Shown here in pieces: positions 4,796 through 31,381 of a DNA stretch of 64,000 nucleotides. A model generated the notes under the pieces. That model did not search any database. It saw nothing but the letters and a program-made list of their open reading frames with translations, and was not told the origin of the DNA. The DNA lies in NCBI RefSeq assembly GCF_044647545.1, contig NZ_CP172818.1; one strand, written 5' to 3'. The DNA is from Escherichia coli. Its GTDB lineage: Bacteria; Pseudomonadota; Gammaproteobacteria; Enterobacterales; Enterobacteriaceae. Position numbers and translations under genes: made by a program. Within the stretch, counting starts at the first letter, position 1, and each line of letters begins with the position of its first letter.

Positions 4796-5503
4796 TTAAG
4801 GTCTCCTTAGCGCCTTATTGCGTAAGACTGCCGGAACTTAAATTTGCCTTCGCACATCAACCTGGCTTTACCCGTTTGTTATTTGGCTCGCCGCTCTGTG
4901 AAAGAGGGGAAAACCTGGGTACAGAGCTCTGGGCGCTTGCAGGTAAAGGATCCATTGATGACGAATAAATGGCGAATCAAGTACTTAGCAATCCGAATTA
5001 TTAAACTTGTCTACCACTAATAACTGTCCCGAATGAATTGGTCAATACTTCCACACTGTTACATAAGTTAATCTTAGGTGAAATACCGACTTCATAACTT
5101 TTACGCATTATATGCTTTTCCTGGTAATGTTTGTAACAACTTTGTTGAATGATTGTCAAATTAGATGATTAAAAATTAAATAAATGTTGTTATCGTGACC
5201 TGGATCACTGTTCAGGATAAAACCCGACAAACTATATGTAGGTTAATTGTAATGATTTTGTGAACGGCCTATACTGCCGCCAGGTCTCCGGAACACCCTG
5301 CAATCCCGAGCCACCCAGCGTTGTAACGTGTCGTTTTCGCATCTGGAAGCAGTGTTTTGCATGACGCGCAGTTATAGAAAGGACGCTGTCTGACCCGCAA
5401 GCAGACCGGAGGAAGGAAATCCCGACGTCTCCTGGTAACAGAAAGTTAACCTCTGTGCCCGTAGTCCCCAGGGAATAATAAGAACAGCATGTGGGCGTTA
5501 TTC

Positions 5504-5893
5504 ATGATAAGAAATGTGAAAAAACAAAGACCTGTTAATCTGGACCTACAGACCATCCGGTTCCCCGTCACGGCGATAGCGTCCATTCTCCATCGCGTTT
5601 CCGGTGTGATCACCTTTGTTGCAGTGGGCATCCTGCTGTGGCTTCTGGGTACCAGCCTCTCTTCCCCTGAAGGTTTCGAGCAAGCTTCTGCGATTATGGG
5701 CAGCTTCTTCGTCAAATTTATCATGTGGGGCATCCTTACCGCTCTGGCGTATCACGTCGTCGTAGGTATTCGCCACATGATGATGGATTTTGGCTATCTG
5801 GAAGAAACATTCGAAGCGGGTAAACGCTCCGCCAAAATCTCCTTTGTTATTACTGTCGTGCTTTCACTTCTCGCAGGAGTCCTCGTATGGTAA
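5504..5893 (+). CDS. sdhC: Succinate dehydrogenase cytochrome b556 large membrane subunit
   Basis: ORF track 5489..5893; canonical start [15 protein letters not shown] at 5504; 129 aa. Confidence 0.95.
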
Positions 5894-6234
5894 GCAACGC
5901 CTCCGCATTAGGACGCAATGGCGTACATGATTTCATCCTCGTTCGCGCTACCGCTATCGTCCTGACGCTGTACATCATTTATATGGTCGGTTTTTTCGCT
6001 ACCAGTGGCGAGCTGACATATGAAGTCTGGATTGGTTTCTTCGCCTCTGCGTTCACCAAAGTGTTCACCCTGCTGGCGCTGTTTTCTATCTTGATTCATG
6101 CCTGGATCGGCATGTGGCAGGTGTTGACCGACTACGTTAAACCGCTGGCCTTGCGCCTGATGCTGCAACTGGTGATTGTCGTTGCTCTGGTGGTTTACGT
6201 GATTTATGGATTCGTTGTGGTGTGGGGTGTGTGA
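5887..6234 (+). CDS. sdhD: Succinate dehydrogenase hydrophobic membrane anchor subunit
   Basis: ORF track 5887..6234; 115 aa; overlaps sdhC end and sdhA start (TGATG). Confidence 0.95.
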
Positions 6235-8000
6235 TGAAATTGCCAGTCAGAGAATTTGATGCAGTTGTGATTGGTGCCGGTGGCGCAGGTATGCGCGCGG
6301 CGCTGCAAATTTCCCAGAGCGGTCAGACCTGTGCGCTGCTCTCTAAAGTCTTCCCGACCCGTTCCCATACCGTGTCTGCGCAAGGCGGCATTACCGTTGC
6401 GCTGGGTAATACCCATGAAGATAACTGGGAATGGCATATGTACGACACCGTAAAAGGTTCGGACTATATCGGTGACCAGGACGCAATTGAATATATGTGT
6501 AAAACCGGGCCGGAAGCGATTCTGGAACTCGAACACATGGGCCTGCCGTTCTCGCGCCTTGATGATGGTCGTATCTATCAACGTCCGTTTGGCGGCCAGT
6601 CGAAAAACTTCGGCGGCGAGCAGGCGGCACGCACTGCGGCGGCAGCTGACCGTACCGGTCACGCACTGTTGCACACCCTTTATCAGCAGAACCTGAAAAA
6701 CCATACAACCATTTTCTCCGAGTGGTATGCGCTGGATCTGGTGAAGAACCAGGATGGCGCAGTGGTCGGTTGTACCGCATTGTGCATCGAAACTGGTGAA
6801 GTGGTTTATTTCAAAGCCCGCGCTACCGTGCTGGCGACTGGCGGGGCAGGGCGTATTTATCAGTCCACCACTAACGCCCACATTAACACTGGCGACGGCG
6901 TCGGCATGGCTATCCGCGCAGGCGTACCGGTGCAGGATATGGAAATGTGGCAGTTCCACCCGACCGGCATTGCAGGTGCGGGCGTACTGGTCACCGAAGG
7001 TTGCCGTGGTGAAGGCGGTTATCTGCTGAACAAACATGGCGAACGCTTTATGGAGCGTTATGCGCCGAACGCCAAAGACCTGGCGGGCCGTGACGTGGTG
7101 GCGCGTTCCATCATGATCGAAATCCGTGAAGGTCGCGGCTGTGATGGTCCGTGGGGGCCACACGCGAAACTGAAACTCGATCACCTGGGTAAAGAAGTTC
7201 TCGAATCCCGTCTGCCGGGTATTCTGGAACTCTCCCGTACCTTCGCTCACGTTGATCCGGTGAAAGAGCCGATTCCGGTTATCCCAACCTGTCACTACAT
7301 GATGGGCGGTATTCCGACCAAAGTGACCGGTCAGGCGCTGACGGTGAACGAGAAAGGCGAAGATGTGGTTGTTCCGGGGCTGTTTGCCGTTGGTGAAATC
7401 GCTTGTGTATCGGTACACGGCGCTAACCGTCTGGGCGGCAACTCGCTGCTGGACCTGGTGGTCTTTGGTCGCGCAGCGGGTCTGCATCTGCAAGAGTCTA
7501 TCGCCGAGCAGGGCGCACTGCGCGATGCCAGCGAGTCTGATGTTGAAGCGTCTCTGGATCGCCTGAACCGCTGGAACAATAACCGTAACGGTGAAGATCC
7601 GGTGGCGATCCGTAAAGCACTGCAAGAATGTATGCAGCATAACTTCTCGGTCTTCCGTGAAGGTGATGCGATGGCGAAAGGGCTTGAGCAGTTGAAAGTT
7701 ATCCGCGAGCGTCTGAAAAATGCCCGTCTGGATGACACTTCCAGCGAGTTCAACACCCAGCGCGTTGAGTGCCTGGAACTGGATAACCTGATGGAAACGG
7801 CGTATGCAACGGCTGTTTCTGCCAACTTCCGTACCGAAAGCCGTGGCGCGCATAGCCGCTTCGACTTCCCGGATCGCGATGATGAAAACTGGCTGTGCCA
7901 CTCCCTGTATCTGCCAGAGTCGGAATCCATGACGCGCCGAAGCGTCAACATGGAACCGAAACTGCGCCCGGCATTCCCGCCGAAGATTCGTACTTACTAA
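6234..8000 (+). CDS. sdhA: Succinate dehydrogenase flavoprotein subunit
   Basis: ORF track 6222..8000; start [19 protein letters not shown] with FAD-binding motif; 588 aa. Confidence 0.96.
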
Positions 8001-8015
8001 TGCGGAGACAGGAAA

Positions 8016-8732
8016 ATGAGACTCGAGTTTTCAATTTATCGCTATAACCCGGATGTTGATGATGCTCCGCGTATGCAGGATTACACCCTGGAAGCGGAAG
8101 AAGGTCGCGACATGATGCTGCTGGATGCGCTTATCCAGCTGAAAGAGAAAGATCCCAGCCTGTCGTTCCGTCGCTCCTGCCGTGAAGGTGTGTGCGGTTC
8201 CGACGGTCTGAACATGAACGGTAAGAATGGTCTGGCCTGTATTACCCCGATTTCGGCACTCAACCAGCCGGGCAAGAAGATTGTGATTCGCCCGCTGCCA
8301 GGTTTACCGGTGATCCGCGATTTGGTGGTAGACATGGGACAATTCTATGCGCAATATGAGAAAATTAAGCCTTACCTGTTGAATAATGGACAAAATCCGC
8401 CAGCTCGCGAGCATTTACAGATGCCAGAGCAGCGCGAAAAACTCGACGGGTTGTATGAATGTATTCTCTGCGCATGTTGTTCAACCTCTTGTCCGTCTTT
8501 CTGGTGGAATCCCGATAAGTTTATCGGCCCGGCAGGCTTGTTAGCGGCATATCGTTTCCTGATCGATAGCCGTGATACCGAGACTGACAGCCGCCTCGAC
8601 GGTTTGAGCGATGCATTCAGTGTATTCCGCTGTCACAGCATCATGAACTGCGTCAGTGTATGTCCGAAGGGGCTGAACCCGACGCGCGCCATCGGCCATA
8701 TCAAGTCGATGTTGTTGCAACGTAATGCGTAA
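8016..8732 (+). CDS. sdhB: Succinate dehydrogenase iron-sulfur subunit
   Basis: ORF track; 238 aa; Cys clusters CxxxxCxxC and CxxCxxCxxxCP. Confidence 0.96.
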   Translation: MRLEFSIYRYNPDVDDAPRMQDYTLEAEEGRDMMLLDALIQLKEKDPSLSFRRSCREGVCGSDGLNMNGKNGLACITPISALNQPGKKIVIRPLPGLPVIRDLVVDMGQFYAQYEKIKPYLLNNGQNPPAREHLQMPEQREKLDGLYECILCACCSTSCPSFWWNPDKFIGPAGLLAAYRFLIDSRDTETDSRLDGLSDAFSVFRCHSIMNCVSVCPKGLNPTRAIGHIKSMLLQRNA

Positions 8733-8912
8733 TTAATGTCGGGAATTCAGGAAATCTTTAAAAACTGCCCCTGACACTAAGACAGTTTTTAAAGGTTCCT
8801 TCGCGAGCCACTACGTAGACAAGAGCTCGCAAGTGAACCCCGGCACGCACATCACTGTGCGTGGTAGTATCCACGGCGAAGTAAGCATAAAAAAGATGCT
8901 TAAGGGATCACG

Positions 8913-11714
8913 ATGCAGAACAGCGCTTTGAAAGCCTGGTTGGACTCTTCTTACCTCTCTGGCGCAAACCAGAGCTGGATAGAACAGCTCTATGAAGACT
9001 TCTTAACCGATCCTGACTCGGTTGACGCTAACTGGCGTTCGACGTTCCAGCAGTTACCTGGTACGGGAGTCAAACCGGATCAATTCCACTCTCAAACGCG
9101 TGAATATTTCCGCCGCCTGGCGAAAGACGCTTCACGTTACTCTTCAACGATCTCCGACCCTGACACCAATGTGAAGCAGGTTAAAGTCCTGCAGCTCATT
9201 AACGCATACCGCTTCCGTGGTCACCAGCATGCGAATCTCGATCCGCTGGGACTGTGGCAGCAAGATAAAGTGGCCGATCTGGATCCGTCTTTCCACGATC
9301 TGACCGAAGCAGACTTCCAGGAGACCTTCAACGTCGGTTCATTTGCCAGCGGCAAAGAAACCATGAAACTCGGCGAGCTGCTGGAAGCCCTCAAGCAAAC
9401 CTACTGCGGCCCGATTGGTGCCGAGTATATGCACATCACCAGCACCGAAGAAAAACGCTGGATCCAACAGCGTATCGAGTCTGGTCGCGCGACTTTCAAT
9501 AGCGAAGAGAAAAAACGCTTCTTAAGCGAACTGACCGCCGCTGAAGGCCTTGAACGTTACCTCGGCGCAAAATTCCCTGGCGCAAAACGCTTCTCGCTGG
9601 AAGGCGGTGACGCGTTAATCCCGATGCTTAAAGAGATGATCCGCCACGCTGGCAACAGCGGCACCCGCGAAGTGGTTCTCGGGATGGCGCACCGTGGTCG
9701 TCTGAACGTGCTGGTGAACGTGCTGGGTAAAAAACCGCAAGACTTGTTCGACGAGTTTGCCGGTAAACATAAAGAACACCTCGGCACGGGCGACGTGAAA
9801 TACCACATGGGCTTCTCGTCTGACTTCCAGACCGATGGCGGCCTGGTGCACCTGGCGCTGGCGTTTAACCCGTCTCACCTTGAGATTGTCAGCCCGGTAG
9901 TTATCGGTTCTGTTCGTGCCCGTCTGGACAGACTCGATGAGCCGAGCAGCAACAAAGTGCTGCCAATCACCATCCACGGTGACGCCGCAGTGACCGGGCA
10001 GGGCGTGGTTCAGGAAACCCTGAACATGTCGAAAGCGCGTGGTTATGAAGTTGGCGGTACGGTACGTATCGTTATCAACAACCAGGTTGGCTTCACCACC
10101 TCTAACCCGCTGGATGCCCGTTCGACGCCGTACTGTACTGATATCGGTAAGATGGTTCAGGCACCGATTTTCCACGTTAATGCGGATGATCCGGAAGCCG
10201 TTGCCTTTGTTACCCGTCTGGCGCTCGATTTCCGTAACACCTTTAAACGTGATGTCTTCATCGACCTGGTATGCTACCGCCGTCACGGCCACAACGAAGC
10301 CGACGAGCCGAGCGCAACCCAGCCGCTGATGTATCAGAAAATCAAAAAACATCCGACGCCGCGCAAAATCTACGCTGACAAGCTGGAGCAGGAAAAAGTC
10401 GCGACGCTGGAAGATGCCACCGAGATGGTTAACCTGTACCGCGATGCGCTGGATGCTGGCGATTGCGTGGTAGCAGAGTGGCGTCCGATGAACATGCACT
10501 CCTTCACCTGGTCGCCGTACCTCAACCACGAATGGGACGAAGAGTACCCGAACAAAGTTGAGATGAAGCGCCTGCAGGAGTTGGCTAAACGCATCAGTAC
10601 GGTGCCGGAAGCCATTGAAATGCAGTCTCGCGTTGCCAAGATTTATGGCGACCGTCAGGCGATGGCAGCCGGTGAAAAACTGTTCGACTGGGGCGGCGCG
10701 GAAAACCTCGCTTACGCCACGCTGGTTGACGAAGGCATTCCGGTTCGCCTGTCGGGTGAAGACTCCGGTCGCGGTACCTTCTTCCACCGCCACGCGGTGA
10801 TCCACAACCAGTCTAACGGTTCAACTTACACGCCGCTGCAACATATCCATAACGGTCAGGGCGCGTTCCGTGTCTGGGATTCCGTACTGTCAGAAGAAGC
10901 CGTGCTGGCGTTTGAATACGGTTATGCCACCGCAGAACCGCGCACACTGACTATCTGGGAAGCACAGTTCGGTGACTTTGCCAACGGTGCTCAGGTGGTT
11001 ATCGACCAGTTCATCTCTTCTGGCGAGCAGAAATGGGGCCGGATGTGTGGCCTGGTGATGTTGTTGCCGCACGGTTACGAAGGGCAGGGGCCGGAGCACT
11101 CCTCCGCGCGTCTGGAACGTTATCTGCAACTTTGCGCTGAGCAAAACATGCAGGTGTGCGTACCGTCTACCCCGGCACAGGTTTACCACATGCTGCGTCG
11201 TCAGGCGCTGCGCGGGATGCGTCGTCCGCTGGTCGTGATGTCGCCGAAATCCCTGCTGCGTCATCCGCTGGCGGTTTCCAGCCTCGAAGAACTGGCGAAC
11301 GGCACCTTCCTGCCAGCCATCGGTGAAATCGACGAGCTTGATCCGAAGGGCGTGAAGCGCGTAGTGATGTGTTCTGGTAAGGTTTATTACGACCTGCTGG
11401 AACAACGTCGTAAGAACAATCAACACGATGTCGCCATTGTGCGTATCGAGCAACTCTACCCGTTCCCGCATAAAGCGATGCAGGAAGTGTTGCAGCAGTT
11501 TGCTCACGTCAAGGATTTTGTCTGGTGCCAGGAAGAGCCGCTCAATCAGGGCGCATGGTACTGCAGCCAGCATCATTTCCGTGAAGTGATTCCGTTTGGG
11601 GCTTCTCTGCGTTATGCAGGCCGCCCGGCCTCCGCCTCTCCGGCGGTAGGGTATATGTCCGTTCACCAGAAACAGCAACAAGATCTGGTTAATGACGCGC
11701 TGAACGTCGAATAA
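8913..11714 (+). CDS. sucA: 2-oxoglutarate dehydrogenase E1 component
   Basis: ORF track; 933 aa; recognised SucA sequence. Confidence 0.96.
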
Positions 11715-11728
11715 ATAAAGGATACACA

Positions 11729-12946
11729 ATGAGTAGCGTAGATATTCTGGTCCCTGACCTGCCTGAATCCGTAGCCGATGCCACCGTCGCAACCTGGCAT
11801 AAAAAACCCGGCGACGCAGTCGTACGTGATGAAGTGCTGGTAGAAATCGAAACTGACAAAGTGGTACTGGAAGTACCGGCATCAGCAGACGGCATTCTGG
11901 ATGCGGTTCTGGAAGATGAAGGTACAACGGTAACGTCTCGTCAGATCCTTGGTCGCCTGCGTGAAGGCAACAGCGCGGGTAAAGAAACCAGCGCCAAATC
12001 TGAAGAGAAAGCGTCCACTCCGGCGCAACGCCAGCAGGCGTCTCTGGAAGAGCAAAACAACGATGCGTTAAGCCCGGCGATCCGTCGCCTGCTGGCTGAA
12101 CATAACCTCGACGCCAGCGCCATTAAAGGCACCGGTGTGGGTGGTCGTCTGACCCGTGAAGATGTGGAAAAACATCTGGCGAAAGCCCCGGCGAAAGAGT
12201 CTGCTCCGGCAGCGGCTGCTCCGGCGGCGCAACCGGCCCTGGCTGCACGTAGCGAAAAACGTGTGCCGATGACTCGCCTGCGTAAGCGTGTGGCAGAGCG
12301 TCTGCTGGAAGCGAAAAACTCCACCGCCATGCTGACCACGTTCAACGAAGTCAACATGAAGCCGATTATGGATCTGCGTAAGCAGTACGGTGAAGCGTTT
12401 GAAAAACGCCACGGCATCCGTCTGGGCTTTATGTCCTTCTACGTGAAAGCGGTGGTTGAAGCCCTGAAACGTTACCCGGAAGTGAATGCTTCTATCGACG
12501 GCGATGACGTGGTTTACCACAACTATTTCGACGTCAGCATGGCGGTTTCTACGCCGCGCGGCCTGGTGACGCCGGTACTGCGTGATGTCGATACCCTCGG
12601 TATGGCAGACATTGAGAAGAAAATTAAAGAGCTGGCTGTTAAAGGCCGTGACGGCAAGCTGACGGTTGAAGATCTGACCGGTGGCAACTTCACCATCACC
12701 AACGGTGGTGTGTTCGGTTCCCTGATGTCTACGCCTATCATCAACCCGCCGCAGAGCGCAATTTTGGGTATGCACGCTATCAAAGATCGTCCGATGGCCG
12801 TGAATGGTCAGGTTGAGATCCTGCCGATGATGTACCTGGCGCTGTCCTACGATCACCGTCTGATCGATGGTCGCGAATCCGTGGGCTTCCTGGTAACGAT
12901 CAAAGAGTTGCTGGAAGATCCGACGCGTCTGCTGCTGGACGTGTAG
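11729..12946 (+). CDS. sucB: Dihydrolipoyllysine-residue succinyltransferase (E2) of 2-oxoglutarate dehydrogenase
   Basis: ORF track; 405 aa; lipoyl domain, Ala/Pro linker, catalytic domain with DHRLIDG. Confidence 0.96.
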
Positions 12947-13035
12947 TAGTTTAAGTTTCACCTGCACTGTAGACCGACGGGATGTGTCGGTCTACGGTTT
13001 AAAAGATAACGATTACTGAAGGATGGACAGAACAC

Positions 13036-14202
13036 ATGAACTTACATGAATATCAGGCAAAACAACTTTTTGCCCGCTATGGCTTACCAGCACCGGTGGG
13101 TTATGCCTGTACTACTCCGCGCGAAGCAGAAGAAGCCGCTTCAAAAATCGGTGCCGGTCCGTGGGTAGTGAAATGTCAGGTTCACGCTGGTGGCCGCGGT
13201 AAAGCGGGCGGTGTGAAAGTGGTAAACAGCAAAGAAGACATCCGTGCTTTTGCAGAAAACTGGCTGGGCAAGCGTCTGGTAACGTATCAAACAGATGCCA
13301 ATGGCCAACCGGTTAACCAGATTCTGGTTGAAGCAGCGACCGATATCGCTAAAGAGCTGTATCTCGGTGCCGTTGTAGACCGTAGTTCACGTCGCGTGGT
13401 CTTTATGGCCTCCACCGAAGGCGGCGTGGAAATCGAAAAAGTGGCGGAAGAAACTCCGCACCTGATCCACAAAGTTGCGCTTGATCCGCTGACTGGCCCG
13501 ATGCCGTATCAAGGACGCGAGCTGGCGTTCAAACTGGGTCTGGAAGGTAAACTGGTTCAGCAGTTCACCAAAATCTTCATGGGCCTGGCGACCATTTTCC
13601 TGGAGCGCGACCTGGCGCTGATCGAAATCAACCCGCTGGTCATCACCAAACAGGGCGATCTGATTTGCCTCGACGGCAAACTGGGCGCTGATGGCAACGC
13701 ACTGTTCCGCCAGCCTGATCTGCGCGAAATGCGTGACCAGTCGCAGGAAGATCCGCGTGAAGCACAGGCTGCACAGTGGGAACTGAACTACGTTGCGCTG
13801 GACGGTAACATCGGTTGTATGGTTAACGGCGCAGGCCTGGCGATGGGCACCATGGACATCGTTAAACTGCACGGCGGCGAACCAGCTAACTTCCTGGACG
13901 TTGGCGGCGGCGCAACCAAAGAGCGCGTAACCGAAGCGTTCAAAATCATCCTCTCTGACGACAAAGTGAAAGCCGTTCTGGTTAACATCTTCGGCGGTAT
14001 CGTTCGTTGCGACCTGATCGCTGACGGTATCATCGGCGCGGTAGCGGAAGTGGGTGTTAACGTACCGGTCGTGGTACGTCTGGAAGGTAACAACGCCGAA
14101 CTCGGCGCGAAGAAACTGGCTGACAGCGGCCTGAATATTATTGCAGCAAAAGGTCTGACGGATGCAGCTCAGCAGGTTGTTGCCGCAGTGGAGGGGAAAT
14201 AA
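13036..14202 (+). CDS. sucC: Succinyl-CoA synthetase beta subunit
   Basis: ORF track; 388 aa; [15 protein letters not shown]-grasp N-terminus. Confidence 0.96.
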
Positions 14203-15071
14203 TGTCCATTTTAATTGATAAAAACACCAAGGTTATCTGCCAGGGCTTTACCGGTAGCCAGGGGACTTTCCACTCAGAACAGGCTATTGCATACGGCACT
14301 AAAATGGTTGGCGGCGTAACCCCAGGTAAAGGCGGCACCACCCACCTCGGCCTGCCGGTGTTCAACACCGTGCGTGAAGCTGTTGCTGCTACTGGCGCTA
14401 CCGCTTCTGTTATCTACGTACCAGCACCGTTCTGCAAAGACTCCATTCTGGAAGCTATTGATGCAGGCATCAAACTGATTATCACCATCACTGAAGGCAT
14501 CCCGACGCTGGATATGCTGACCGTGAAGGTGAAACTGGATGAAGCGGGCGTTCGCATGATCGGCCCGAACTGCCCAGGCGTTATCACTCCGGGTGAATGC
14601 AAAATCGGTATCCAGCCTGGTCACATTCACAAACCGGGTAAAGTGGGTATCGTTTCCCGTTCCGGTACACTGACCTATGAAGCGGTTAAACAGACCACGG
14701 ATTACGGTTTCGGTCAGTCGACCTGTGTTGGTATCGGCGGCGACCCGATCCCTGGCTCTAACTTTATCGACATCCTCGAAATGTTCGAAAAAGATCCGCA
14801 GACCGAAGCGATCGTGATGATCGGTGAGATCGGCGGTAGCGCTGAAGAAGAAGCGGCTGCGTACATCAAAGAGCACGTTACCAAGCCTGTTGTGGGTTAC
14901 ATCGCTGGTGTGACTGCGCCGAAAGGCAAACGTATGGGCCACGCGGGTGCGATCATTGCCGGTGGGAAAGGGACTGCGGATGAGAAATTCGCTGCTCTGG
15001 AAGCCGCAGGCGTGAAAACCGTTCGCAGCCTGGCTGATATCGGTGAAGCACTGAAAACTGTTCTGAAATAA
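14202..15071 (+). CDS. sucD: Succinyl-CoA synthetase alpha subunit
   Basis: ORF track; 289 aa; start overlaps sucC stop. Confidence 0.96.
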
Positions 15072-15170
15072 ATATCTGTAATAAGAAATAGCCCTCGCCG
15101 CTTCCCTCTACAGGAATGGCGAAGGGCTGTCGGTTTCGACATGGTTGGCCATCATATGATGGCCTTTTTT
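15072..15170 (+). ncRNA. sdhX: 3'-UTR-derived small RNA SdhX (RybD), ending at the sucD terminator
   Basis: Sequence immediately after the sucD stop, ending in hairpin GGCCATCATATGATGGCC plus T6; matches my recollection of the sucD 3'UTR sRNA. Confidence 0.6.
15147..15170. terminator. Bidirectional rho-independent terminator between sucD and mngR
   Basis: Palindrome GGCCATCATATGATGGCC followed by TTTTTT; convergent genes on both sides. Confidence 0.75.
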
Positions 15171-15174
15171 ATGC

Positions 15175-15897
15175 TTATCGCGATGATTTTCGCTGCGCTA
15201 TCAGGGTAAATTTATAGTCATCGGTATTAAAAGCGTTGCGGCTATATTCAAACACCCGACCATCAACTAAATATCCACGCGATACTTTTTCAAGAATCGG
15301 CTTTGTCTGGCTGATATTAAGCAGACGGCTCATCTCTTCGGTTGGCATCAGAGGAATGATTTCCTGTTCGCTACGATCGATAACCATTTTCTTCACTTCT
15401 TCGATAAAGTGATATTTCGAATTTTCCATGACCTGCCAGGTGAGATCCGGGAACAACGCAAGCGGCATCCAGGTTTCTTCCAGCGCCATTGGCTTTTGCT
15501 TGCGATAGCGCACGCGCTTCACATGCCACACACGATCCTGCGGGGTGATTTGTAGCTGTTGCTGAAGAAAATCGTCAGCCGGAATCACTTCGAATATCAG
15601 AACTTCACTGTGTGTATCGACGTGACGGTCCGACAGTTTTTCATCAAAACTGGTTAACTGAAAAATATCGTAATTGACCCGCTCTTCTTTGACGTAAGTC
15701 CCGCTGCCCTGAATGCTTTCGAGGATCTGCTGCTCGACTAGCTGGCGCAAAGCCTGACGCACCGTAACCCGGCTGACGCCAAACTCTGTTTGTAGCGCTG
15801 ATTCAGTGGGTAACGCATCGCCAGGTTTAAGCTCGCCACGCGCAATTTGTTCACGAATGCGATCGGCAATCTGCCGGTATAAGGGCTTGTGTCCCAT
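15175..15897 (-). CDS. mngR: GntR-family transcriptional repressor of the mannosyl-D-glycerate operon
   Basis: ORF track; 240 aa; N-terminal GntR HTH, UTRA C-domain; divergent from mngA. Confidence 0.92.
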   Translation of the reverse strand: MGHKPLYRQIADRIREQIARGELKPGDALPTESALQTEFGVSRVTVRQALRQLVEQQILESIQGSGTYVKEERVNYDIFQLTSFDEKLSDRHVDTHSEVLIFEVIPADDFLQQQLQITPQDRVWHVKRVRYRKQKPMALEETWMPLALFPDLTWQVMENSKYHFIEEVKKMVIDRSEQEIIPLMPTEEMSRLLNISQTKPILEKVSRGYLVDGRVFEYSRNAFNTDDYKFTLIAQRKSSR

Positions 15898-16005
15898 TTT
15901 TAGTATCTCATTAATACGAATTTAACCATTATGCCCGATAAATTCATCCTGTAAATAATACAAATACAATACAAATAATTTCAATCAAGTGAAATTGATC
16001 ACATA

Positions 16006-17982
16006 ATGGTATTGTTTTATCGGGCACACTGGCGCGACTATAAAAACGATCAAGTGAGGATCATGATGAATCTGACGACTCTGACCCACCGCGATGCGTT
16101 GTGTCTGAATGCGCGCTTTACCAGCCGTGAAGAGGCCATCCACGCGTTGACTCAACGTCTTGCTGCTCTGGGGAAAATTTCCAGTACTGAGCAATTTCTG
16201 GAAGAAGTGTATCGCCGTGAAAGCCTTGGCCCGACCGCCTTAGGTGAAGGGTTGGCTGTGCCGCATGGCAAAACTGCTGCGGTAAAAGAAGCGGCGTTTG
16301 CGGTCGCCACACTCAGCGAGCCGCTTCAGTGGGAAGGCGTTGATGGCCCGGAAGCAGTTGATTTAGTGGTGCTGCTGGCGATTCCCCCCAATGAAGCGGG
16401 TACTACGCATATGCAACTGCTGACAGCGCTGACCACGCGCCTTGCGGATGATGAGATTCGGGCGCGTATACAGTCGGCGACGACGCCTGATGAGTTGCTC
16501 TCGGCGCTGGATGACAAGGGAGGCACGCAACCTTCTGCCTCTTTTTCCAACGCGCCAACTATCGTCTGCGTAACGGCCTGTCCGGCGGGTATTGCTCACA
16601 CCTATATGGCTGCGGAATATCTGGAAAAAGCCGGACGCAAACTCGGCGTAAATGTTTACGTTGAAAAACAAGGCGCTAACGGCATTGAAGGGCGTTTAAC
16701 GGCGGATCAACTCAATAGTGCAACCGCCTGTATTTTTGCGGCTGAAGTCGCCATCAAGGAGAGTGAGCGTTTTAATGGCATTCCCGCGCTTTCAGTGCCT
16801 GTTGCCGAGCCGATTCGCCATGCAGAAGCGTTGATCCAACAAGCGCTTACCCTCAAGCGTAGCGATGAGACGCGTACCGTACAGCAAGATACGCAACCGG
16901 TGAAAAGTGTCAAAACGGAGCTGAAACAGGCACTGTTGAGCGGAATCTCTTTTGCCGTACCGTTGATTGTCGCGGGGGGCACGGTGCTGGCGGTCGCGGT
17001 ATTACTGTCGCAAATCTTCGGGCTACAAGATCTGTTTAATGAAGAAAACTCCTGGCTGTGGATGTACCGCAAGCTGGGCGGCGGGCTGCTCGGAATTTTG
17101 ATGGTACCGGTGCTCGCGGCCTATACCGCCTATTCTCTGGCAGATAAACCGGCGTTAGCGCCAGGCTTTGCGGCTGGACTTGCCGCCAACATGATCGGCT
17201 CCGGGTTTCTCGGCGCGGTCGTTGGCGGATTGATAGCCGGTTACTTGATGCGCTGGGTGAAAAATCACTTGCGTCTTAGCAGTAAATTCAATGGATTCCT
17301 GACTTTTTATCTCTACCCGGTGCTCGGTACGTTGGGAGCGGGCAGTCTGATGCTGTTTGTGGTGGGGGAACCTGTCGCCTGGATCAATAACTCGCTTACC
17401 GCCTGGCTGAACGGTCTGTCAGGAAGTAACGCGCTGTTGCTGGGTGCCATTCTCGGTTTTATGTGTTCCTTTGACCTTGGAGGGCCAGTGAATAAAGCCG
17501 CTTATGCATTCTGCCTGGGCGCAATGGCGAACGGCGTTTACGGCCCGTATGCCATTTTCGCCTCCGTCAAAATGGTTTCGGCATTTACCGTAACCGCTTC
17601 CACGATGCTCGCACCGCGCCTGTTTAAAGAGTTTGAAATTGAGACCGGGAAATCCACCTGGCTGTTAGGGCTGGCAGGTATTACCGAAGGGGCGATCCCG
17701 ATGGCGATTGAAGATCCGCTGCGGGTTATTGGTTCGTTTGTGCTGGGCTCTATGGTAACGGGCGCTATTGTCGGTGCGATGAATATCGGCCTTTCGACAC
17801 CCGGTGCCGGCATTTTCTCGCTCTTTTTACTTCATGATAATGGCGCGGGCGGTGTTATGGCGGCAATTGGCTGGTTTGGCGCGGCATTGGTGGGGGCTGC
17901 AATCTCGACTGCAATTCTCCTGATGTGGCGGCGTCACGCGGTTAAGCATGGCAACTATCTGACTGATGGCGTAATGCCATAA
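16006..17982 (+). CDS. mngA: PTS 2-O-alpha-mannosyl-D-glycerate-specific EIIABC component
   Basis: ORF track; 658 aa; EIIA-EIIB-EIIC fructose-family PTS architecture. Confidence 0.92.
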
Positions 17983-23066: not shown

Positions 23067-24206
23067 ATGATCGATTATGAAGTATTGCGTTTTATCTGGT
23101 GGCTGCTGGTTGGCGTTCTGCTGATTGGTTTTGCAGTCACTGACGGTTTCGACATGGGGGTGGGCATGCTCACCCGTTTCCTCGGTCGTAACGACACCGA
23201 GCGTCGAATTATGATTAACTCCATTGCACCACACTGGGACGGTAACCAGGTTTGGCTGATCACCGCGGGCGGCGCACTCTTTGCTGCCTGGCCGATGGTC
23301 TATGCCGCTGCGTTCTCCGGCTTCTATGTGGCGATGATCCTCGTGCTGGCGTCTTTGTTCTTCCGTCCGGTCGGTTTTGACTACCGCTCCAAGATTGAAG
23401 AAACCCGCTGGCGTAACATGTGGGACTGGGGCATCTTCATTGGTAGCTTCGTTCCGCCGCTGGTGATTGGTGTAGCGTTCGGTAACCTGTTGCAGGGCGT
23501 ACCGTTCAACGTTGATGAATATCTGCGTCTGTACTACACCGGTAACTTTTTCCAGCTGCTTAACCCGTTCGGCCTGCTGGCAGGCGTGGTGAGCGTAGGG
23601 ATGATCATTACTCAGGGCGCAACCTATCTGCAAATGCGTACCGTGGGTGAACTGCACTTGCGTACCCGTGCAACGGCTCAGGTGGCGGCACTGGTGACAC
23701 TGGTCTGCTTCGCACTGGCTGGCGTATGGGTGATGTACGGTATCGATGGTTATGTTGTGAAATCAACAATGGACCATTACGCAGCCTCTAACCCGCTGAA
23801 TAAAGAAGTGGTTCGTGAAGCTGGCGCATGGCTGGTTAACTTCAACAACACGCCAATTCTGTGGGCTATTCCGGCACTGGGTGTGGTTCTGCCGCTGCTG
23901 ACCATCCTGACTGCACGTATGGATAAAGCCGCGTGGGCGTTTGTGTTCTCCTCCCTGACGCTGGCCTGCATCATCCTGACTGCCGGTATCGCAATGTTCC
24001 CGTTTGTGATGCCGTCCAGCACCATGATGAACGCAAGTCTGACAATGTGGGATGCAACTTCCAGCCAGCTGACGCTTAACGTCATGACCTGGGTTGCGGT
24101 GGTTCTGGTACCGATCATTCTGCTCTACACCGCCTGGTGCTACTGGAAAATGTTCGGTCGTATCACCAAAGAAGATATTGAACGTAACACCCACTCTCTG
24201 TACTAA
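23067..24206 (+). CDS. cydB: Cytochrome bd-I ubiquinol oxidase subunit II
   Basis: ORF track; 379 aa. Confidence 0.96.
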   Translation: MIDYEVLRFIWWLLVGVLLIGFAVTDGFDMGVGMLTRFLGRNDTERRIMINSIAPHWDGNQVWLITAGGALFAAWPMVYAAAFSGFYVAMILVLASLFFRPVGFDYRSKIEETRWRNMWDWGIFIGSFVPPLVIGVAFGNLLQGVPFNVDEYLRLYYTGNFFQLLNPFGLLAGVVSVGMIITQGATYLQMRTVGELHLRTRATAQVAALVTLVCFALAGVWVMYGIDGYVVKSTMDHYAASNPLNKEVVREAGAWLVNFNNTPILWAIPALGVVLPLLTILTARMDKAAWAFVFSSLTLACIILTAGIAMFPFVMPSSTMMNASLTMWDATSSQLTLNVMTWVAVVLVPIILLYTAWCYWKMFGRITKEDIERNTHSLY

Positions 24207-29067: not shown

Positions 29068-29613
<546 letters not shown>

Positions 29614-29622
29614 GAGAATTGC

Positions 29623-30414
29623 ATGAGCAGTAACTTCAGACATCAACTATTGAGTCTGTCGTTACTGGTTGGTATAGCGGCCCCCTGGGCCGCTTTTGCT
29701 CAGGCACCAATCAGTAGTGTCGGCTCAGGCTCGGTCGAAGACCGCGTCACTCAACTTGAGCGTATTTCTAATGCTCACAGCCAGCTTTTAACCCAACTCC
29801 AGCAACAACTCTCTGATAATCAATCCGATATTGATTCCCTGCGTGGTCAGATTCAGGAAAATCAGTATCAACTGAATCAGGTCGTGGAGCGGCAAAAGCA
29901 GATCCTGTTGCAGATCGACAGCCTCAGCAGCGGTGGTGCAGCGGCGCAATCAACCAGCGGTGATCAAAGCGGTGCGGCGGCATCAACGACGCCGACAGCT
30001 GATGCTGGTACTGCGAATGCTGGCGCGCCGGTGAAAAGCGGTGATGCAAACACGGATTACAATGCAGCTATTGCGCTGGTGCAGGATAAATCCCGCCAGG
30101 ATGACGCAATGGTGGCATTTCAGAATTTCATCAAAAATTACCCTGATTCAACTTACCTGCCAAACGCCAATTATTGGCTGGGTCAGTTAAACTACAACAA
30201 GGGTAAAAAAGATGATGCGGCGTATTATTTTGCTTCGGTAGTGAAAAACTATCCGAAGTCACCGAAGGCTGCAGATGCGATGTTTAAAGTCGGCGTCATC
30301 ATGCAGGACAAAGGTGACACCGCAAAAGCGAAAGCCGTATACCAGCAGGTTATCAGTAAATACCCTGGTACTGATGGCGCTAAACAGGCGCAAAAACGTC
30401 TGAACGCGATGTAA
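29623..30414 (+). CDS. cpoB: Cell division coordinator CpoB (YbgF), TPR protein
   Basis: ORF track; 263 aa; signal peptide, coiled coil, TPR-like C-terminus. Confidence 0.93.
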   Translation: MSSNFRHQLLSLSLLVGIAAPWAAFAQAPISSVGSGSVEDRVTQLERISNAHSQLLTQLQQQLSDNQSDIDSLRGQIQENQYQLNQVVERQKQILLQIDSLSSGGAAAQSTSGDQSGAAASTTPTADAGTANAGAPVKSGDANTDYNAAIALVQDKSRQDDAMVAFQNFIKNYPDSTYLPNANYWLGQLNYNKGKKDDAAYYFASVVKNYPKSPKAADAMFKVGVIMQDKGDTAKAKAVYQQVISKYPGTDGAKQAQKRLNAM

Positions 30415-30578: not shown

Positions 30579-30654
30579 GGGTCGTTAGCTCAGTTGGTAG
30601 AGCAGTTGACTTTTAATCAATTGGTCGCAGGTTCGAATCCTGCACGACCCACCA
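30579..30654 (+). tRNA. lysT: tRNA-Lys (UUU)
   Basis: 76-nt GGGTCGTTAGCTCAGTTGGTAGAGCAGTTGACTTTTAATCAATTGGTCGCAGGTTCGAATCCTGCACGACCCACCA; anticodon loop CTTTTAA. Confidence 0.97.
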
Positions 30655-30730
30655 ATCGCTAAGGTGGAAGCGGTAGTAAAACGTGAAGGATAACGTTGCG
30701 TCAGCAACGGCCCGAAGGGCGAGACGAAGT

Positions 30731-30754
30731 CGAGTCATCCTGCACGACCCACCA
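30731..30754 (+). other. 3' fragment of tRNA-Lys (acceptor/T-arm remnant) in the lysT-valT spacer
   Basis: ATCCTGCACGACCCACCA is identical to the last 18 nt of the tRNA-Lys genes, with no 5' half. Confidence 0.6.
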
Positions 30755-30789
30755 CTAACATAGTTAGTTGTAGTATCCAGCGTAGTATC

Positions 30790-30865
30790 GGGTGATTAGC
30801 TCAGCTGGGAGAGCACCTCCCTTACAAGGAGGGGGTCGGCGGTTCGATCCCGTCATCACCCACCA
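30790..30865 (+). tRNA. valT: tRNA-Val (UAC)
   Basis: 76-nt GGGTGATTAGCTCAGCTGGGAGAGCACCTCCCTTACAAGGAGGGGGTCGGCGGTTCGATCCCGTCATCACCCACCA. Confidence 0.97.
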
Positions 30866-30867
30866 CC

Positions 30868-30943
30868 GGGTCGTTAGCTCAGTTGGTAGAGCAGTTGACT
30901 TTTAATCAATTGGTCGCAGGTTCGAATCCTGCACGACCCACCA
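30868..30943 (+). tRNA. lysW: tRNA-Lys (UUU)
   Basis: Identical to lysT, 76 nt. Confidence 0.97.
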
Positions 30944-30994
30944 CTAATTACGGTGGGTTCGGTGGAAGTAGTTTGTAGTATCCAGCGCAGTATC

Positions 30995-31070
30995 GGGTGA
31001 TTAGCTCAGCTGGGAGAGCACCTCCCTTACAAGGAGGGGGTCGGCGGTTCGATCCCGTCATCACCCACCA
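30995..31070 (+). tRNA. valZ: tRNA-Val (UAC)
   Basis: Identical to valT, 76 nt. Confidence 0.97.
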
Positions 31071-31073
31071 CTC

Positions 31074-31148
31074 GGGTCGTTAGCTCAGTTGGTAGAGCAG
31101 TTGACTTTTAATCAATTGGTCGCAGGTTCGAACCTGCACGACCCACCA
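31074..31148 (+). tRNA. lysY: tRNA-Lys (UUU) variant copy, 75 nt, with a 1-nt shorter T-loop
   Basis: Same as lysT except T-arm reads GGTTCGAACCTGC instead of GGTTCGAATCCTGC. Confidence 0.85.
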
Positions 31149-31196
31149 ATTTTAAAGATTGGTTCCGAGTAGAAATCTTTCAGGTAACACCCGTAT

Positions 31197-31272
31197 GGGT
31201 CGTTAGCTCAGTTGGTAGAGCAGTTGACTTTTAATCAATTGGTCGCAGGTTCGAATCCTGCACGACCCACCA
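31197..31272 (+). tRNA. lysZ: tRNA-Lys (UUU)
   Basis: Identical to lysT, 76 nt. Confidence 0.97.
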
Positions 31273-31305
31273 TCCTGAATGATTAAAGCAGCATAATCCC
31301 GCAAG

Positions 31306-31381
31306 GGGTCGTTAGCTCAGTTGGTAGAGCAGTTGACTTTTAATCAATTGGTCGCAGGTTCGAATCCTGCACGACCCACCA
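31306..31381 (+). tRNA. lysQ: tRNA-Lys (UUU)
   Basis: Identical to lysT, 76 nt. Confidence 0.97.

Follow-up and report, generated by a model that had tools for sequence, protein, structure and literature searches.

A near-identical copy of the K-12 sdhX small RNA gene at the sdhCDAB-sucABCD operon's 3' end in an Escherichia coli genome

Results

The sdhX locus and its surroundings

The window, a 64,000-nt stretch of Escherichia coli DNA numbered from its first nucleotide, is Escherichia-like: over 25 kb it shares approximately 98.7% identity with the nearest complete genomes of E. coli. It contains the whole sdhCDAB-sucABCD transcription unit (Table 1), the last cistron of which encodes a SucD protein that is 100% identical to that of E. 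albertii. Two intercistronic spacers vary in length: the sucB-sucC spacer (12947-13035) is 89 nt in the window, 365 nt in strain VR50 and 93 nt in FDAARGOS_497, and the sdhB-sucA spacer (8733-8912) is 180 nt in the window and 300 nt in VR50. Such differences resemble the gain or loss of repeated extragenic elements inside the operon; a survey of REP elements records sdhX itself as without a REP and without a RIT.

Directly after sucD, on the same strand, lies a 101-nt segment that matches 99 of the 101 nucleotides of the K-12 MG1655 ncRNA gene sdhX (b4764, NC_000913.3 765050-765150, "small regulatory RNA SdhX"), which follows sucD in the same way in K-12. The first of the two mismatches is A15154 (SdhX position 83), a G in K-12, which falls in the terminator loop at a position that is A, G or T among Escherichia; the second is A15171 (SdhX position 100), also a G in K-12 and located past the U-tract. 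Neither touches a pairing element: K-12 SdhX has an identical seed, G62, C34 region, stem-loop 1 and terminator stem. The experimentally mapped elements (seed, G62, C34 region and terminator) are all intact. The preliminary description, which read the roughly 100 nt between the sucD stop codon and the terminator hairpin as SdhX, is supported by this identity to a curated ncRNA in the same position with every mutationally tested nucleotide retained. Its interval, 15072-15170, begins just after the stop codon, finishes with the last nucleotide of the U-tract and is 2 nt shorter than the equivalent of the curated K-12 gene. Because the identity occurs at a syntenic position, with the whole parent operon upstream on the same strand, the segment is almost certainly the sdhX gene, encoding an Hfq-dependent sRNA from the 3' end of the operon mRNA. 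This sRNA gene is well characterised and already known; the copy in the window is an ordinary one and contains no new biology.

Table 1. Coordinates of the parent operon, the SdhX elements and the convergent neighbour in the window
Feature	Position	Strand	Basis or remark
sdhCDAB-sucABCD, parent transcription unit	5489-15071	+	ORF list matched to E. coli VR50 annotation, 98.7% identity
sdhC (start 5489), sdhD, sdhA, sdhB (end 8732)	5489-8732	+	ORF list compared with VR50 annotation
sucA	8913-11714	+	ORF list compared with VR50 annotation
sucB	11729-12946	+	ORF list compared with VR50 annotation
sucC	13036-14202	+	ORF list compared with VR50 annotation
sucD, succinyl-CoA synthetase alpha subunit, last cistron	14202-15071	+	TAA stop at 15069-15071
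Full-length SdhX (sdhX; earlier name RybD)	15072-15172	+	101 nt by K-12 annotation
5' stem-loop 1, Escherichia-specific variable part of SdhX	15090-15128	+	-22 kcal/mol, z = -4.1
katG-pairing region GCUUCCCUCUACAG, including C34 = C15105	15100-15113	+	Mapping from PMC6393394
Putative RNase E site GG↓UUU, cut at 15133/15134 giving the short form	15132-15136	+	Loop of the 15128-15141 hairpin
G62 = G15133, used for fdoG	15133	+	Mapping from PMC6393394
Predicted short form, SdhX2-like, ~38 nt: seed and terminator	15134-15171	+	Fold; 38-nt form reported in PMC6393394
Conserved seed UUCGACAUGGU	15135-15145	+	Exact match, 1 nt before the terminator stem
Rho-independent terminator/Hfq-binding module	15147-15170	+	7-bp stem and 4-nt loop (15147-15164), U6 tail 15165-15170
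mngR, convergent	15175-15897	-	Follows sdhX

Of 5426 complete E. coli genomes, 5425 contain the sdhX segment. The preliminary description was right that six-frame ORF analysis would miss it: E. coli genomes annotated with PGAP list no feature at this position. It had also staked the identification on a match to Rfam or by homology. Homology gave the clear match described above. When the whole window was searched with Rfam release 15 at the gathering score, no family was found at the sdhX site, and a scan of 14950-15300 at E <= 10 returned chance matches only, such as RyhB at 15 bits (gathering score 55) through the terminator. Since a sequence almost identical to the K-12 prototype receives no match, Rfam 15 is without a matching family, and the Rfam half of the check is uninformative rather than negative. 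Elsewhere in the window, Rfam gave a full-length match to the CpoB/ybgF intercistronic RNA thermometer at 29514-29652 (RF02782, 142 bits) and a match to RtT RNA at 30586-30754 (RF00391, 60.6 bits); the latter overlaps the first tRNA, and its spacer, of a cluster of seven tRNA genes at 30579-31378.

Synteny breaks immediately after the SdhX U-tract (window 15171-15180). The convergent mngR follows in the window and in K-12, an RtcB-family gene and then hutU in FDAARGOS_497, a TPR-protein pseudogene in Nissle 1917, and another sequence in E. albertii; a query extending from sucD to mngR was covered to at least 80% in only 3866 of the 5426 E. coli genomes. In E. coli FDAARGOS_944 (locus L089, NZ_CP065613.1, 1501-2330), an IS1 is inserted inside sdhX after nt 73 (...GACAUGG), equivalent to 15144/15145 in the window. 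The insertion separates the seed from the terminator, with loss of the SdhX terminator/Hfq module, and this strain is probably a natural sdhX knockout.

Predicted structure of SdhX

The predicted folding energy of the 101-nt RNA (15072-15172) is -41.3 kcal/mol (z = -5.4), a stability that none of 200 shuffled sequences equals; what is observed at 15072-15172 is far beyond chance expectation. The fold has three parts: the long 5' stem-loop 1, a short weak hairpin and the terminator. In stem-loop 1, the pair formed by nt 28 and nt 47 shows a compensatory change between the window (C-G) and E. albertii (U-A), and in other genera this region is replaced by unrelated hairpins. The short hairpin (15128-15141, UGUCG-GUUU-CGACA) has 5 bp and a stability of -5.3 kcal/mol, which is not significant, and it pairs half of the seed. 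AUGUC...GACAU-like complementarity recurs in the 3' UTRs of Enterobacter, Pluralibacter and Kluyvera, and is absent in some genera.

No terminator-like site other than the terminator itself, GGCCATC-ATAT-GATGGCC followed by TTTTTT, occurs in 14500-16200. In an alignment of 22 species, the terminator helix is paired in 100% of its cells and four of the seven pairs show compensatory changes, a covariation score reached by none of 500 shuffles. When the predicted short form is folded by itself, its nt 1-13, including the whole seed, are single-stranded and the terminator remains closed.

Conservation of the seed beside the terminator

To follow the segment across species independently of its seed, we collected sucD loci from 80 species through the SucD protein: 43 Enterobacterales, including three unclassified or Enterobacter MAGs with enterobacterial-type 3' UTRs, and 37 other Gammaproteobacteria. 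Nine named genera of Enterobacteriaceae have the exact seed, placed 12 nt upstream of the terminator stem, represented by Escherichia albertii, Mangrovibacter, Phytobacter, Enterobacter, Pluralibacter, Superficieibacter, Citrobacter, Kluyvera and Cedecea. The spacing between seed and terminator is constant across the surveyed seed-bearing Enterobacteriaceae loci; the distance from stop codon to seed varies from 27 to 64 nt, and each exact-seed genus has 5' hairpins unrelated to those of the others. Variants of the seed with one or two changes occupy the same position in Serratia, Dickeya, Rahnella and Hafnia. In this 80-species survey the seed is absent, and a short 3' UTR with the terminator alone is found, in Erwiniaceae, Photorhabdus, Arsenophonus, Budvicia and all 37 outgroup species. 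The sRNA core is confined, among the sampled species, to Enterobacteriaceae together with Serratia, Rahnella, Dickeya and Hafnia, which reproduces and extends the conservation picture of PMC6393394 and PMC9438474.

Individual loci depart from this pattern. Enterobacter sp. BIGb0383 (locus L020, 2071-2160) has a degenerate seed, TTGCGACTTAACT, which appears lost; Serratia grimesii (locus L025, 2074-2140) has an unrelated terminator and the seed appears lost; and Yersinia artesiana (locus L047, 2080-2145) has GTTCGACAC and, after it, a hairpin that lacks a U-tract. The occurrence of seedless members in seed-bearing genera or families suggests repeated loss or turnover of SdhX.

A covariance model, R1, built from 19 non-Escherichia sequences, matches 15127-15171 of the window over its full length with 55.1 bits (E = 3e-10), the next best match in the 64 kb scoring 14.5 bits. 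Seedless taxa match the terminator half of R1 alone. Could the segment then be merely the 3' UTR and intrinsic terminator of the sdh-suc operon, without any trans function and conserved because termination requires it? A canonical terminator does fill 15147-15170, and the many Enterobacterales and all outgroups that have only a short 3' UTR and a terminator, matched as such by R1, fit this reading. However, the UTR exceeds by 75 nt what termination needs, and the unpaired 11-13 nt on the 5' side of the stem have no role in termination, yet in the terminator-anchored alignment positions -13 to -1 are 68-96% conserved, compared with 32-52% at -24 to -14, while the stem co-varies. For K-12 and Salmonella the reading was refuted by reporter assays with seed mutants and compensatory mutants (PMC6393394), which attribute trans regulation to precisely these nucleotides, and we consider it very improbable for the window.

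Less probable still, with a chance close to nil, is that the hairpin serves mainly as a bidirectional terminator for the convergent mngR, or that mngR read-through is an antisense regulator of SdhX. The mngR stop codon is only 3 nt from the sdhX 3' end and the hairpin also folds on the - strand (-11.7 kcal/mol), but there it is followed by AACCAUGUCG and no U-tract. Furthermore, mngR is missing from this position in many E. coli, where the RtcB-family gene or the TPR pseudogene replaces it, and in E. albertii, with sdhX unchanged; because the downstream neighbour varies and sdhX is constant, the hairpin is tied to sucD and not to mngR. Equally negligible is a small protein encoded by the 33-amino acid ORF at 15116-15217 (+) or the 81-amino acid ORF at 14897-15142 (-), both present in the mechanical ORF list, because neither is annotated in any genome examined, the - strand ORF is antisense to the highly conserved 3' end of sucD, and the + strand ORF has a part upstream of the seed that is unrelated in other genera and continues past the terminator, where Nissle 1917, FDAARGOS_497 and E. 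albertii have completely different sequences, leaving its C-terminal half unconserved.

Complementarity to known targets

The ackA, fdoG and katG genes of the window strain are outside the 64 kb, and pairing was assessed as the longest contiguous helix between SdhX and the K-12 target leaders. RNAduplex takes no account of intramolecular structure; applied to full-length SdhX and 120-nt leaders, it therefore paired them end to end in a meaningless way, and was replaced by the contiguous-helix test. SdhX 15135-15144 forms a 10-bp helix with ackA -2 to +8, which 40 of 500 shuffles equal; 15133-15142 forms a 10-bp helix with fdoG -22 to -13, in which G62 pairs with C-13 and which 24 of 500 shuffles reach; and 15100-15113 forms a 14-bp helix with katG -20 to -7, in the Shine-Dalgarno region, which no shuffle out of 500 reaches. 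The pairing sites in the leaders are CCAUGUCGAG for ackA, AUGUCGAAAC for fdoG and CUGUAGAGGGGAGC for katG. The ackA and fdoG helices alone are only marginally better than shuffles, and their weight comes from coincidence with mutationally mapped nucleotides: the best local helices to all three K-12 leaders fall exactly on the nucleotides validated in PMC6393394, where compensatory mutations in E. coli established the requirement of fdoG repression for G62 and of katG repression for the C34 region.

Sites complementary to the seed with at most one mismatch number seven in the window, against an expectation of 4.75 +/- 1.8, and were treated as chance. Within this chance-level count, a 9/10 site (ACAUGUCGAA) at 10024-10033 (+) lies inside sucA of the parent operon. 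An exact match at 23148-23157 in cydB was rejected as a target, being a sense copy of the seed.

Discussion

The position, identity, structure and conservation pattern of the segment, and its complementarity to the K-12 targets, are observed directly in this analysis. Processing, Hfq dependence and regulation are drawn from the literature on K-12 and Salmonella, and we infer that they are the same in the window strain. RNase E releases SdhX from the mRNA of the operon; SdhX binds Hfq and represses ackA through the seed, and a 38-nt 3' fragment is enough for ackA repression (PMC6393394). Independent published support comes from Hfq co-immunoprecipitation and from RIL-seq and CLASH chimeras with ackA and katG (PMC9438474; PMC7213987).

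How might SdhX be produced in the window strain? No promoter-like site was found within about 400 nt upstream of the SdhX 5' end. On the + strand, 14500-16200 contains a single such site, at 14626 (9/12 match), and shuffled sequence yields at least as many. The Hfq-dependent sRNA would consist of the final ~100 nt of the operon mRNA, which is ~10 kb long, and because SdhX would have no promoter of its own, its level should track transcription of the TCA-cycle operon, which responds to Crp and ArcA. A cut by RNase E near the sucD stop codon would yield the ~101-nt form. The consensus for RNase E cleavage is RN↓WUU, and a second cut at GG↓UUU in the loop of the short hairpin would yield the ~38-nt form. 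The exact cleavage point in the window strain is probably 15133/15134; at the matching position in Salmonella, a UUU to CCC mutation blocks processing (PMC6393394). Both forms would end at the terminator, whose hairpin and U-tail would bind Hfq.

It is likely that the single-stranded seed then pairs over the ackA start codon and blocks translation, sparing the co-transcribed pta, and repression of AckA would tie the metabolism of acetate and acetyl-phosphate to expression of the TCA cycle. As described for E. coli, a seed lengthened to include G62 would also repress fdoG, and the Escherichia-specific stem-loop 1, around C34, would repress katG by pairing with the Shine-Dalgarno region. Two further and separate ideas are speculative, and we regard them as unlikely: that the short hairpin hides half of the seed in the full-length form, making RNase E processing to 38 nt the activating step, and that read-through from the convergent mngR supplies an antisense RNA that titrates SdhX. 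If the first were true, seed availability would be set both by transcription of the operon and by the activity of RNase E; antisense titration, if true, would be confined to strains with the convergent mngR arrangement.

A close counterpart outside Escherichia is the experimentally studied Salmonella SdhX, with its 87-nt SdhX1 and 38-nt SdhX2 forms, which likewise comes from the 3' end of the operon, has the same seed beside the terminator and targets ackA, and for which dependence on RNase E and Hfq has been demonstrated (PMC6393394). Unlike E. coli SdhX, it has a U at the G62 position and is missing the stem-loop region that pairs with katG, which explains why it represses fumB and yfbV and not fdoG or katG (PMC6393394). 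The window SdhX carries the E. coli-type features. CpxQ, SroC, NarS, MalH and GlnZ are similar in being 3' UTR-derived, RNase E-processed Hfq sRNAs without their own promoter, in having a seed just 5' of the terminator and in cross-regulating other mRNAs (PMC9438474), but they differ in parent genes, seeds and targets, and have no sequence relationship to SdhX.

Because sdhX is absent from PGAP and Rfam 15 annotation, it is silently missing in nearly all E. coli genome records. A simple sucD-anchored model recovers it cleanly. SdhX is a textbook 3' UTR-derived sRNA, by which an operon of central metabolism regulates another pathway, from the TCA cycle to acetate and acetyl-phosphate.
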